NCBI GenBank assembly: GCA_022561385.1
Contig: JADFRG010000004.1
Location: 18,822-82,821 of the forward strand
Reading direction: 5' to 3'
Length of the DNA: 64,000 nucleotides
DNA from: Chloroflexota bacterium
Lineage (GTDB): Bacteria > Chloroflexota > Anaerolineae > Anaerolineales > E44-bin32
The notes beneath the pieces are model-generated. The model was not told where the DNA came from. It did no database searches and saw nothing but the letters and a program-made list of their open reading frames with translations. The first letter of the stretch is position 1. Each line of letters starts with the position of its first letter. A program made the translations under genes and the position numbers. Positions 22,575 to 24,547 of the stretch are shown here, one piece after another.

Positions 22575-23131
22575 TCGGGCACCTGATGATGCTCCCGACA
22601 CCGGGCCTCATACAACTCGCTCGCACCGACCGCAATGACTGGGTCCGAGGCGCGCGCAGGAGCATTGTCGATCAGACGTTGAGTCCGAGTGGCCGGCTTT
22701 CCGCATACCATACATATGGCATGCAGCTTGTCGACCCGCTCCGCGGTCGCCATAAGCCAGGGCATCGAGCCGAAGGGATTACCTCGAAAATCCGTGTCTA
22801 GCCCGGCCACGATGACTCGCCGGCCTTCATCCGCCATATCTCTACACACCTTCAAGATCATTTCGTCAAAGAACTGGGCCTCGTCAATCGCAACCACAGT
22901 GGTATCTCCCGCCACCGCGTGGGGGATGGCCTCCGCGGTCTCAATTGAAGTGGCTTCGAACTGACCTCCGGCGTGGGAAGTGACCATCTCGGAAGGATCG
23001 CGATCGTCCACGGACGGCTTAAAGACCTGCACCTTTTGACGTGCGATCGTGGCGCGCCTGAGCCGGCGGATCAACTCTTCCGTCTTCCCGCTGAACATCG
23101 AACCGGTGATAACTTCCAATGATCCAGTCAA
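22571..23131 (-). CDS. tdk: Thymidine kinase
   Basis: [28 protein letters not shown] and YEARCREH. Confidence 0.95.
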
Positions 23132-23151
23132 GCTTCAATCCCTCCGATACG

Positions 23152-23180
23152 AAAAAGGCAGGTGCCTGAGCACCTGCCTT
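23152..23180 (-). terminator. Intrinsic terminator after rpmE
   Basis: AAGGCAGGTGC-CTGA-GCACCTGCCTT perfect 11-bp inverted repeat with T5 on the minus strand. Confidence 0.8.
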
Positions 23181-23203
23181 GAGTTTACTTCAAACGTGCA
23201 GCG

Positions 23204-23677
23204 CTAGATCTGAGGCTCTCCGGCAGGCTCCGGTAACTCAAAACCGCGCGATTTCATTCGGCGCTTGAGATCCGCCAGGCCCTTGCGGCCGAAATTTTCG
23301 ATTGCCAGGAGCGCGGCGTCCCCCTGCCGCATCAGCTCCAAGGCCTGGCCTACATCTTTGATACCCGCCTTGTCGAGCGCGGTCCGGGCGCGATTGCCGA
23401 TGTCGAGATCCGCAATGAGAGTGTCCGGAGAGGTCTTGGCCGCCTCACGGACCTGCACCTCCTGAATAAACCCTTCTCTGGCCTCGAGCTTGCGGTAGAA
23501 CCGATCGACTTGACCCTCGGTATCAACGATGCGCTGCTCACCGGTATAGAAGGGATGACAATCGGAACACACGTCGGTATGAATCCGCTCTACCGTCGAG
23601 CCCGTTGTCCACGAGTTTCCGCACGAACAGGTCACAATCGCCTCTAGGAAATACTCTGGGTGAATTCCTGGCTTCAT
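23204..23677 (-). CDS. rpmE: 50S ribosomal protein L31 with C-terminal RNA polymerase alpha-CTD-like domain
   Basis: [29 protein letters not shown] (Zn-type L31), then about 90 extra residues. Confidence 0.92.
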
Positions 23678-23934
23678 GCGGTGCTCTCCAACACGTTGAC
23701 CCGCTTCTTGCCCCCCCGGACGTAGTCGAACATAACGATCCCATCGCGAGTGGCGAATAGTGTATCGTCCGACCCCTTTCCGACATTCAATCCGGGGTGG
23801 ATGCGCGTACCCCGTTGTCGGACCAGGATGTTTCCAGAACGAACTACCTGGCCCCCATAACGCTTCACTCCGAGTCGCTTCGACCGACTGTCTCGACCGT
23901 TGCGAGTTGAGCCGCCACCCTTTTTATGTGCCAT
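23674..23934 (-). CDS. rpmA: 50S ribosomal protein L27
   Basis: [31 protein letters not shown]. Confidence 0.98.
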
Positions 23935-23945
23935 CTGCTGTTCCT

Positions 23946-24392
23946 TTAGTTCTTAGTGGGCGCCTTGGGTTTGGCGTCGCTTACCTTAGTCAAAGCCTTG
24001 CGCTTAGCGCTTGATTTCGTTGCGCTAGATTTGCTCTTGGCGGCAACCTTCTTCTTTGTCTCCGCTTCCGGAGCCTTCGGAAAACCGATGCTTTCAATCG
24101 CCACATGTGTGAGCAGCTGACGGTGTCCCTGTGTGCGCCTGTATCGCTGCTTGGGCCTGAATTTAAATACAATGATCTTCTTGCCCTTTGGGTGATCCTG
24201 CACCTTGCCCTTGACGCTGGCGCCCTTAACGAACGGCGCGCCCACATCCACCTTCTTCCCGTCCGAGACAAGCAGGACATCTTTGAATACAACGGGTTTG
24301 CCGATCTCGAGCGACATTCGGTCCATCTCAATGAGGCTGCCCTCATACGCCAGATATTGCTTCCCGCTGTATTCGACGATAGCGTATTTCAT
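23946..24392 (-). CDS. rplU: 50S ribosomal protein L21 with Lys/Ala-rich tail
   Basis: [30 protein letters not shown]. Confidence 0.95.
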
Positions 24393-24421
24393 AGGGTATG
24401 GTTCATACCATGCGACGGAAC

Positions 24422-24451
24422 ATTATAAAGGGGGCCAAATCGCGATGTCAA
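24422..24451 (-). promoter_or_regulatory. sigma70 promoter of the rplU-rpmA-rpmE operon
   Basis: TTGACA-18 bp-TATAAT, perfect hexamers. Confidence 0.8.
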
Positions 24452-24547
24452 CCTCCTTGGACCTCGAACACTTCGTGCATCGAACAGGATCCCCAGGGGC
24501 CAGCGGCCTCCAAGGATCGTAGAATGCCTGGCCCAGGTGGCTGCCAG

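Follow-up and report, generated by a model that had tools for sequence, protein, structure and literature searches.

The rpmE gene examined here occupies positions 23204..23677 on the minus strand of the window, by which we mean the whole 64,000-nt stretch of DNA under analysis, and closes an rplU-rpmA-rpmE operon. Upstream of rplU lies a sigma-70-type promoter-like site (24422..24451, minus strand) with agreement at 12 of 12 consensus positions and an 18-nt spacer, identified by consensus match only. The first gene, rplU (23946..24392, minus strand; PF00829, E 3.3e-32), encodes a bL21 of 148 aa in which the Pfam domain spans residues 3-102 and is followed by a Lys/Ala/Ser-rich C-terminal tail, and the second, rpmA (23674..23934, minus strand; PF01016, E 2e-35), encodes a bL27 of 86 aa. 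The TGA stop codon of rpmA (23676-23674) overlaps the start codon of rpmE (23677-23675) in an ATGA motif; the coupling of the two genes claimed in a preliminary description of this DNA can be read directly in the sequence. The same description had placed a terminator behind the extended stop codon of rpmE and had regarded the extension as part of the gene—and an intrinsic-terminator-like hairpin of 11 pairs (7 of them GC), with a loop of 4 and a T-rich tail (23155..23180, minus strand), indeed starts 24 nt past that stop codon (23204-23206). The genes for L21 and L27 were also found directly upstream in all 17 fused loci of other assemblies.

The rpmE open reading frame begins with ATG and encodes a protein of 157 aa, in which four parts can be distinguished, all on the minus strand: a complete zinc-type bL31 core (residues 1-63; 23489..23677), as indicated by Pfam, structure and Foldseek; a helical spacer (residues 64-85; 23423..23488), based on a predicted helix and a survey of spacer lengths; an alphaCTD-like (HhH)2 domain (residues 86-146; 23240..23422), recognized by HMM, BLASTP, fold and alignments; and a tail (residues 147-157; 23204..23239, including the stop codon) with a conserved E-L-P-E motif. 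Residues 1-63 match the Ribosomal_L31 family (PF01197, a model of 65 positions) with 95.9 bits against a cut-off of 27 (E 1.6e-27), and the NCBIfam models NF000612 and TIGR00105 score 94.4 bits (cut-off 70) and 88.3 bits (cut-off 38.35) on the core. The zinc cysteines Cys17, Cys19, Cys37 and Cys40 are present, with a conservation of at least 90% in alignment A1. The fused bL31s of family f9 lack the four zinc cysteines. In a comparison of the core with solved structures, the best bL31 chain was matched with E 3.3e-21, and the core model contains a β-sheet at residues 10-34, with bL31 chains in 70S structures as the top Foldseek matches. The spacer is predicted as a single helix (residues 53-81) and measures 23-26 residues in all 36 main-clade fusions. 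Within the tail, Pro149 is conserved in at least 90% of alignment A1, and a proline occupies tail position 2-4 in 31 of the 35 fusions with a tail of at least 5 residues. Finally, PF01197 was matched a single time in the whole genome (92% complete); the rpmE fusion, present in one copy and located in a ribosomal operon, serves as the organism's sole bL31.

The extension is a true alphaCTD homologue, as evidenced by HMM, pairwise similarity and predicted fold. Residues 81-142 of the whole protein match RNA_pol_A_CTD (PF03118) with 33.7 bits against a cut-off of 23.8 (E 3.1e-8), the C-terminal 83 aa alone reach 35.8 bits (E 6.5e-9), and a whole-genome scan returned 35.4 bits for the fusion. The HMM search proposed in the preliminary description therefore places the extension above the Pfam cut-off both in the whole protein and as a separate domain and, with both Pfam families above cut-off, the original view of a normal Zn-type L31 carrying an RNA polymerase alpha-CTD-like extension is borne out. 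BLASTP aligned the fused domain with the alphaCTD of the genome's own RpoA without gaps (26 of 67 residues identical, 39%; E 3e-14) and with RpoA of E. coli K-12 (18 of 61 identical; E 1e-6). The latter alignment reproduces one made earlier by eye, in which R265, N294, G296 and K298 of E. coli were kept and S299 had become Gly: R96 is equivalent to R265, N128 to N294, G130 to G296, K132 to K298 and G133 to S299, and the equivalents of N268 and C269 are T99 and A100. A 3-residue insertion follows G110 relative to E. coli RpoA; because the same insertion, relative to both E. coli and the Pfam model, characterizes the Chloroflexota-type alphaCTD, the fused domain almost certainly derives from that type. 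Structure prediction of the domain alone, likewise proposed earlier, yielded an alphaCTD-like, five-helix (HhH)2 fold (AlphaFold2, residues 75-157; pLDDT 78.7), and the Foldseek rows shown for this model all belong to RNAP alpha chains, including 9dvt_A (root-mean-square deviation of 0.9 Å over 62 columns, TM 0.89 by target) and 1lb2_E (1.9 Å over 63 columns)—the small size of the domain keeping the E-values weak (4.9e-3 or more). In the NCBIfam rpoA models, just the last 70-80 positions find a match, far under cut-off (e.g., 34.3 versus 227.8 bits); the fusion is not an RpoA, the alpha N-terminal domain being replaced by bL31, and the genuine rpoA is located elsewhere (G000 C22). Of the 94 solved chains that matched with an E-value of at most 1, 60 were listed, and none of these spans both the core and the domain. 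The 157-aa protein is thus, with near certainty, a single bL31 composed of a full core, a rigid helical spacer of ~25 residues and a paralogue of the RpoA alphaCTD.

The preliminary description had suggested a survey of L31 architecture across Chloroflexota and had named absence of the fusion from relatives as a refutation; the survey revealed the full-length fusion in 30 of the 31 genomes sampled from the order (18 families), and a second sample in all 34 genomes of the same order. The fusion is fixed in the order. Across the class Anaerolineae, 30 of 201 genomes possess it, with nine further families also retaining it; among the rows listed, the other Chloroflexota classes yielded no instance. 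The fusions of families f104, f119 and f125 are placed apart from the main clade and possess longer spacers of 31-39 residues, and the fusion event may have happened repeatedly. Both Pfam families are present in each of the 120 database relatives of 153-165 aa listed, and among 150 listed representatives at 50% identity, many of them fragments, 5 span residue 1 to at least residue 142. The same single open frame is present in dozens of independent assemblies (including the single-contig G043, G076 and G258), and an RNA-library contig, X17 (23374-23554), bridges core, spacer and domain; positions 23555-23686 are covered in none of the four RNA-library runs, and the contig depths cannot rank genes. 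The notion of two genes joined artificially, through faulty assembly, a frameshift or an overlooked stop codon, to which we assign a negligible probability, is refuted by the independent assemblies, the database relatives and the order-wide occurrence, as well as being at odds with a transcript contig that spans the junction. Three class matches running through stop codons (G434, G425 and G573) were considered as split-gene intermediates, with an L31 gene next to a separate alphaCTD gene, and rejected: they are L31 genes with unrelated tails. Other L31s of Anaerolineae also bear different helical or low-complexity C-terminal tails at the same attachment point. In the open-access literature searched, we found no description of an L31-alphaCTD or a NusA-alphaCTD fusion in Chloroflexota.

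To characterize the surface of the fused domain, we compared 36 main-clade fusions with 35 RpoA proteins from the same genomes. Residues R265, N268, C269, N294, G296, K298 and S299 constitute the '265 determinant', i.e., the surface that binds UP-element DNA. R265, N268, N294, G296, K298 and S299 are each found in 35/35 RpoA sequences. In the fusions, the equivalents of R265 and G296 are kept (34/36 each), and the position of N268 is Asn in 6/36, that of N294 is Asn in 4/36, that of K298 is Lys in 23/36 and that of S299 is Ser in 19/36; the C269-equivalent is Ser in 33 of the 35 RpoA proteins and Ala in 29 of the 36 fusions. Across the 36 main-clade fusions, the determinant is consequently not conserved as a set. 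The preliminary picture of a mimic that keeps the nucleic-acid-binding residues applies to this particular protein, in which the arginine, N294, glycine and lysine equivalents are all kept, but not to the family, for which it holds at the R265- and G296-equivalents only. The residues that define the fold are conserved in the fused domain, and three positions of the last helix (138, 139 and 142), mixed in RpoA, are Lys or Arg in 36/36 fusions—forming a new basic stripe of K138, K/R139 and K/R142. Over a core of 59 residues, the net charge of the domain averages +0.78 in the fusions (n=27) versus -1.10 in RpoA (n=30); among the fused domains it spans -3 to +4, with negative values in family f9. 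Sequence divergence is faster in the domain than in the L31 core, with mean identities to P0001 of 0.48 and 0.68, respectively.

A search for related modules led to NusA and to other components of the transcription machinery. The genome's own NusA (626 aa read) produced only NusA_N, S1 and KH matches at E up to 1, with no match for HHH_5/AR repeats at the same threshold, and its residues 430-510 share 30% identity with the alphaCTD of the same genome (E 5e-10). PF03118 was detected in the NusA of all three relatives checked (27.7, 24.6 and 22.7 bits), HHH_5 remaining under cut-off (15.3 and 18.7 bits versus 27), and NusA-size frames match PF03118 in 12 of 31 genomes of the order, 8 of them above cut-off. 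The tether to NusA envisaged in the preliminary description is therefore not applicable as such in its E. coli form, in which AR2 of NusA binds alphaCTD: the genome's NusA is without an AR match and has an alphaCTD-like domain of its own. With a mean net charge of -4.65 (n=17), the NusA domain is acidic; that of bL31 is mildly basic, and BLASTP gave no alignment between the two. A complex prediction for the NusA C-terminal domain (A2 1-78) and the bL31 domain (A1 80-157) scored 0.00 in two runs, an outcome with no bearing on whether they bind. A strict association of the fusion with the NusA domain was rejected, as the latter occurs in many families that lack the fusion, and families f5, f104 and f125 have the fusion with no NusA-type match for the query used. 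A proline motif behind the domain, common to NusA and bL31, was also considered (31/35 fusions, 12/17 NusA and 2/22 RpoA); the register differs and nothing was drawn from it. Moreover, an alphaCTD-like insert is present in beta-prime of sister families, and two alphaCTD-like modules occur together in one sigma-region-4 protein.

To our knowledge, bL31 forms the sole all-protein bridge that follows the swivelling 30S head. Two studies (PMC7530986; PMC10931766) describe contacts of its C-terminal domain with uS13, uS19, uS14 and h42, movement together with the 30S head, and weaker subunit association upon loss of the last seven bL31 residues. Because the extension lies within the gene, the protein is the sole bL31 and the fusion is fixed in the order, each ribosome probably carries the polymerase-type module, presumably as part of a full-length protein. 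The module would be displayed from the top of the 30S head, beside uS13, uS14, uS19 and 16S helix 42, with the constant spacer holding it at a set distance from the bL31 anchor. The relaxation of positions invariant in RpoA, the fixation of a new basic stripe and the shift in charge together suggest that the fused domain was neo-functionalised: it would have given up the invariant UP-element/activator surface of RpoA and kept instead R96, the hairpin glycines and the newly fixed stripe. The reading we favour, tentatively, is that this domain acts on the ribosome itself, as an extra internal arm docking on nearby rRNA or proteins (the presumed ligands) of the 30S head or the central protuberance; such an arm would reinforce or tune bridge B1, with effects on subunit association and head movement. 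This reading is weakened by a domain charge ranging from -3 to +4 and negative in f9, which is unusual for packing against conserved rRNA, and by the faster evolution of the domain relative to the L31 core. The other alphaCTD-like modules found in the class all reside on transcription proteins (NusA, beta-prime and the sigma-region-4 protein), which points toward a transcription-linked role and, if the fusions of f104, f119 and f125 are independent captures, the partner should be specific to alphaCTD-like folds—an argument against a generic rRNA contact.

Such a role could be fulfilled by a coupling arm, where the alphaCTD paralogue on the 30S head reaches RNAP, NusA, NusG, an alphaCTD-binding factor or adjacent DNA. 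In E. coli expressomes, NusG and RNAP dock at uS10 and uS3, both neighbours of the uS14 that adjoins the bL31 C-terminus, and this proximity fits coupling, as do the true homology of the domain with its retained R265- and G296-equivalents, the alphaCTD-like domain borne by NusA of the same genomes where E. coli NusA has acidic repeats, the acidic character of that domain opposite a mildly basic bL31 domain, the modules in beta-prime and the sigma-region-4 protein of other families, and a possibly repeated origin of the fusion. Nevertheless, we regard coupling as possible but rather doubtful: the fusion has relaxed the interaction surface that is invariant in RpoA, its distribution does not follow that of the NusA domain, BLASTP gives no alignment of the latter with the bL31 domain, and a spacer of constant length would sooner suit docking at a fixed site than free fishing for a partner. 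An arm that binds in trans—to mRNA (for instance structured or leaderless messages close to the head), to tRNA, to an adjacent ribosome within polysomes or 100S dimers, or to a hibernation or assembly factor—would benefit from an HhH fold whose conserved arginine and basic stripe suit backbone contacts, and from a position on the mobile 30S head; PMC7530986 additionally reports an effect of the bL31 C-terminus on 100S formation in E. coli. With a mean charge that is just mildly positive, we consider this option unlikely.

Two further explanations dispense with a task of the module on the ribosome. Free bL31-CTD could regulate its own operon, or bind DNA or RNAP as a small transcription factor, in line with the alphaCTD-like modules of regulators in the class (the G609 protein) and with the autogenous translational repression exerted by E. 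coli bL31, as described in PMC10931766. That same source maps the repressor activity to the N-terminal segment, most copies of a sole bL31 should be ribosomal and the DNA-reading positions are relaxed, making an extraribosomal function very unlikely. Largely neutral accretion, i.e., the pick-up of an abundant mobile module tolerated at a permissive C-terminus, would be in keeping with the promiscuity of alphaCTD-like modules in the class, the many different tails borne by its bL31 proteins and the faster evolution of the domain relative to the core. We hold it to be highly improbable in view of retention in 30/31 genomes of the order plus nine further families, conserved fold residues, three basic positions kept in 36/36 fusions and a constant spacer length.

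The alphaCTD serves the polymerase as a universal adaptor toward DNA, activators and NusA, and the Anaerolineales are a large, mostly uncultured order that is abundant in the environment. A stable, clade-wide bL31-alphaCTD fusion in this group amounts to a natural experiment in the exchange of parts between the translation and transcription machines, and forms part of a wider pattern in the class Anaerolineae, in which sigma-like proteins, beta-prime and NusA bear alphaCTD-like modules as well. Should the module act on the ribosome, a polymerase domain would have been re-used as a ribosomal element, with a new way of tuning bridge B1; should its target be polymerase, NusA or DNA, it would represent a new, genetically encoded coupling device—a built-in link encoded by the ribosome, mechanistically unlike the NusG-uS10 bridge and one that may have been acquired more than once. 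The fusion lends itself to testable constructs, namely the isolated 70-residue domain and a truncated bL31.

Compared with the alphaCTD of RpoA, the fused copy has the PF03118 match, the (HhH)2 fold and the R265- and G296-equivalents in common, along with a 3-residue insertion shared with the genome's RpoA. It differs in residing on bL31 rather than on an alpha N-terminal domain and in not being part of an RNAP subunit, as well as in its relaxed N268, N294, K298 and S299 positions and adjoining surface, all of them invariant in RpoA, the stripe at 138/139/142, its more basic character and its faster evolution. With canonical zinc-type bL31 (E. coli, T. thermophilus and B. subtilis; 63-72 aa in solved ribosomes), the protein shares the core, the four cysteines, its status as the sole genome copy and its place in a ribosomal-protein operon, but it has ~90 extra C-terminal residues that provide a spacer and a folded domain. 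Other bL31 extensions in Anaerolineae (~106-139 aa, with helical, Ala/Glu/Lys-rich tails) use the same attachment point and have the first part of the spacer in common, their matches reaching query residues 75-120, yet they contain no folded alphaCTD-like domain. The AR2-alphaCTD pair of E. coli and the NusA domain of the same genome likewise involve small (HhH)2 modules on flexible or helical tethers, and the combination of an acidic NusA module with a more basic alpha-type module parallels the E. coli pair in charge; the distributions of the NusA and bL31 modules are uncoupled here. Finally, the E. coli expressome features a NusG-uS10 bridge, as outlined in a review, which would be a functional analogue if the coupling reading is right, both linking the 30S head to RNAP. 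There, a transcription factor binds a ribosomal protein, whereas here the ribosomal protein itself carries a polymerase-type domain.

The fused rpmE gene is a single open frame of 157 codons with an ATG start (window 23204..23677, minus strand), and this ATG overlaps the TGA of rpmA as ATGA (23677-23674). A GC-rich hairpin of 11 bp, trailed by T-rich sequence, is found 24 nt past the rpmE stop, and a sigma-70-type promoter-like site upstream of rplU (TTGACA, 18 nt, TATAAT; 24422..24451, minus strand) matches the consensus at 12/12 positions, with 0.7 chance sites expected in the scanned 1.8-kb region. Together with the genes around rpmE—encoding bL21, bL27, thymidine kinase, a phosphoribosyltransferase and an enzyme of the CCA-adding/poly(A)-polymerase family—these features point to a putative transcription unit ordered promoter, rplU, rpmA, rpmE, terminator. 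All elements of the preliminary description of the fusion were found in the sequence. In other assemblies, L21 and L27 directly precede the fused rpmE in 17/17 loci and thymidine kinase follows it in 16 of them, the 17th locus stopping too early to judge. PF01197 matches once in the genome (92% complete, 94 contigs), in the fused rpmE, and PF03118 twice, in rpoA and the fused rpmE; the fused product is the cell's bL31. We also observed that bL21 (23946..24392, minus strand) bears a Lys/Ala/Ser-rich C-terminal tail of ~45 residues past its Pfam domain (residues 3-102 of 148).

Residues 1-63 match Pfam Ribosomal_L31 with 95.9 bits (E 1.6e-27). The proposed alphaCTD-like nature of the extension was borne out by RNA_pol_A_CTD, which matched residues 81-142 with 33.7 bits (curated cut-off 23.8, E 3.1e-8) and reached 35.8 bits when the C-terminal 83 residues were scanned by themselves. 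NCBIfam L31 equivalogs exceeded their cut-off, and the rpoA models gave partial matches over their last 70-80 positions only, far sub-threshold. The genome's own RpoA alphaCTD aligned gap-free to the extension (26/67 identical, E 3e-14); with residues 257-314 of E. coli K-12 RpoA, identity was 18/61 (E 1e-6), with a 3-residue insertion in the extension. This insertion is common to the fusion, the genome's own RpoA and an alphaCTD-like domain of NusA, since their 59-residue cores align with one another without gaps, and points to a probable derivation of the fused domain from a Chloroflexota-type alphaCTD. With the whole protein as input (27-row alignment, pLDDT 77), AlphaFold2 folded residues 10-34 into the L31 sheet, 53-81 into a single long helix and 88-144 into a bundle of five helices, with a weak linker at 47-52. 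For this model, Foldseek placed bL31 chains of 70S structures on top, followed by RNAP alpha chains (for example 7khc_A, rmsd 1.4 Å, 65 columns). When the domain was modeled alone (18 rows, pLDDT 78.7), the matches listed were RNAP alpha chains only—9dvt_A (rmsd 0.9 Å, 62 columns, TM 0.89 by target), 1doq and 1lb2_E among them—with E-values that are weak (at least 4.9e-3) because the domain has 60 residues. No solved chain spanning both halves occurred among the 60 listed by a sequence search. The extension is genuinely homologous to alphaCTD: the protein belongs to the bL31 family, and its C-terminal domain, by model and fold, to the alphaCTD family.

Among 8000 scored database candidates, 7629 fell at E <=0.001, and both Pfam families were present in all 120 relatives listed (153-165 aa), which, where named by their source, are plain L31 of Chloroflexota or Anaerolineales bacteria. 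An even sample of the order (31 genomes, 18 families) gave a match from residue 1-2 to at least 144 in 30 genomes, the sole exception being G594 (87% complete). A survey of L31 architecture in 401 Chloroflexota genomes likewise recovered the fusion in 34/34 genomes of the same order and 3/11 others of the same class; none was found in further genomes of this sample among the best 150 matches listed. This tally takes in six genomes flagged unpublished: G173, G272, G344 and G038 gave L31-only matches among those listed, and G145 and G227 were absent from the matches listed, among which a fusion of full length should have ranked. In a class sample of 201 genomes, an uninterrupted full-length match occurred in 30, from the coded families f1, f2 (5/5), f5 (4/4), f9 (5/5), f94 (2/2), f97 (4/4), f104 (2/2), f124 (2/2), f125 (3/3), f130 (1/1) and f119 (1/5); the remaining genomes had shorter L31 matches, or none at E <=1e-10 (4 genomes). 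At least 17 of 80 named public loci listed were fused, labeled Anaerolineae, Anaerolineales, Anaerolineaceae, Chloroflexota, 'Chloroflexia' and, for one, Ardenticatenaceae; in the remaining 63 loci, which come from many phyla, only the L31 part matched. The two-domain architecture is already visible in precomputed domain tables: the ESM Atlas holds 12 such clusters, and in the three displayed Chloroflexota is the commonest phylum, judged from the few members with a record.

Seven coded studies include marine-sediment metagenome runs with DNA near-identical to window 23100..24500; several may be the assembly's own source. In RNA-library data from four such runs, one contig (X17, 23374-23554) spans L31 core, spacer and domain, and two more reach over 23144/23159-23404. 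These contigs lend weak support to transcription of the fused frame, because RNA libraries may contain DNA and contigs give presence only. Two synonymous-looking variants (23216 C>T and 23234 T>C) were seen repeatedly in contigs from the RNA libraries of two studies.

Across aligned fused relatives, the commonest residue's mean share per column was 0.78 in the L31 core (residues 1-63), 0.57 in the spacer (64-85), 0.65 in the domain (86-146) and 0.46 in the tail (147-157). From the V-D-R-F motif to the domain, the spacer measures 23-26 residues in 36/36 sequences of the main clade of bL31 domains. We compared these 36 domains with 35 RpoA alphaCTDs of the same class over the E. coli R265/N268/N294/G296/K298/S299 surface, which in E. 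coli reads UP-element DNA and meets activators. RpoA hardly varies there, each equivalent being present in 35/35 sequences. The nucleic-acid-binding residues had been described as kept in the protein under study; across the 36 fusions this holds for R265 and G296 (34/36 each), and relaxation was found at N294 (Asn in 4/36, Gly in 31/36) and K298 (Lys in 23/36), with Asn at N268 in 6/36 and Ser at S299 in 19/36. All 36 fusions have Lys/Arg at positions 138, 139 and 142 of the last helix, where RpoA residues are mixed, and Ala104 and Gly128 are fusion-specific relative to RpoA. Net charge, computed on the 59-residue core, averaged +0.78 in the bL31 fusion (n=27, range -3 to +4; +4 in the protein under study), -1.10 in RpoA (n=30, -4 to +1) and -4.65 in the NusA domain (n=17, -6 to -3).

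In a maximum-likelihood tree of 92 domain cores, where many forks are unresolved because only 61 columns were available, the 36 bL31 domains form one clade (support 99/93). Two f125 sequences group with NusA domains (89/77); the main clade also excludes both f104 sequences and the one from f119. These same five sequences (L165-L168, L158) have longer spacers, of 31 or 39 residues, and the two features together suggest more than one origin of the fusion; f104, f125 and f119 may represent independent events. All bL31 domains formed a single group in 0% of bootstrap trees, a single origin being compatible with the well-supported branches alone. The f125 domains look NusA-like, being acidic with a 'G-F-G-P-K-S-L' hairpin. 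The f9 fusions (L022, L023, L171, L172), from a family that is probably Ardenticatenaceae going by the label of locus L041, lack all four zinc cysteines, so the fusion is independent of the zinc type of bL31; they keep the spacer and domain, and the E-L-P-E tail is absent. Other Anaerolineae L31s, where read, carry helical or low-complexity Ala/Glu/Lys/Gln-rich C-terminal tails and no folded domain. Five of these (L153-L157; G434, G425, G573, G471, G417) are ~106-139 aa long, G434 at 136 aa as an ORF and the others from printed frames.

Related modules occur on other proteins. NusA of the genome under study (contig C45, L105:1-1878, minus strand; 626 aa as read) matches only NusA_N, S1 and KH in Pfam, and its residues 430-510 (domain at L105:349-591) align with the genome's own RpoA alphaCTD (20/66 identical, 30%, E 5e-10), reaching only 13.1 bits against PF03118. 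This domain, itself acidic, belongs to a C-terminal extension of ~280 aa and is followed by a further acidic stretch and by an end rich in Lys/Arg. Three relatives' NusA sequences examined whole gave 27.7, 24.6 and 22.7 bits at ~433-494, the first two reaching the cut-off. In the order sample, 600-706-aa frames match PF03118 in 12/31 genomes (8 above cut-off; N-terminal NusA domains checked in three relatives only), and 11 of the 12 regions align well to the NusA domain studied here, the twelfth, more weakly aligned, being omitted from the NusA-domain alignment. This domain is more widely spread than the bL31 fusion, and a NusA-domain query found no match of this type in the fusion-bearing families f5, f104 and f125. 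Beta-prime of two other Anaerolineae families (G425, L179:2448-5201, plus strand; G451, L181:1-2790, minus strand) has an alphaCTD-like insert within Rpb1 domain 3 at residues ~725-790 (22.4 and 25.0 bits), and four more class-sample genomes have ~1500-1560-aa frames with the same match. A sigma-like frame in G609 (L180:3-2081, minus strand; at least 693 aa, open at the locus end) has sigma-70 region 4 as well as two alphaCTD-like domains in its N-terminal part (59.9 bits), and HARE-HTH matches it weakly; it may be a regulator assembled from polymerase modules.

According to passages of two papers (PMC7530986, PMC10931766), bL31 rests on 5S rRNA and uL5 with its N-terminal domain, its C-terminal part binds uS13, uS19, uS14 and 16S helix 42 and follows the 30S head as a rigid body, and both subunit association and 100S formation are weakened when the last seven residues are lost. 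Since the C-terminal part is bound to the head, the added module would be suspended from its top. We tentatively favor a neo-functionalised arm, which would dock in cis on the ribosome and modify bridge B1 or head dynamics, on the grounds of the relaxed RpoA interaction surface, the newly fixed basic stripe, the constant length of the helical spacer and the general occurrence of tails at this C-terminus in the class. The main rival, a putative coupling arm to RNAP, NusA or DNA, appears rather unlikely: it would fit the exclusively transcription-related company of the module elsewhere in the class and a possibly repeated capture, whereas the relaxed RpoA interaction surface and a distribution that does not track the NusA domain tell against it. 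Binding of RNA or factors in trans is improbable, a role of the free protein highly so, and near-neutral accretion the least probable reading. An artefactual fusion was excluded.

We found no description of an L31-alphaCTD fusion or its NusA-alphaCTD counterpart in full-text literature (supplements and subscription journals being outside the scope), and the word 'fused' is absent from a 2024 review of extraribosomal functions of ribosomal proteins. The L31-alphaCTD fusion is real and clade-wide. Compared with known systems, the fused protein does not qualify as an alpha subunit of RNAP, and its domain does not preserve the full DNA-binding determinant set of an alphaCTD.
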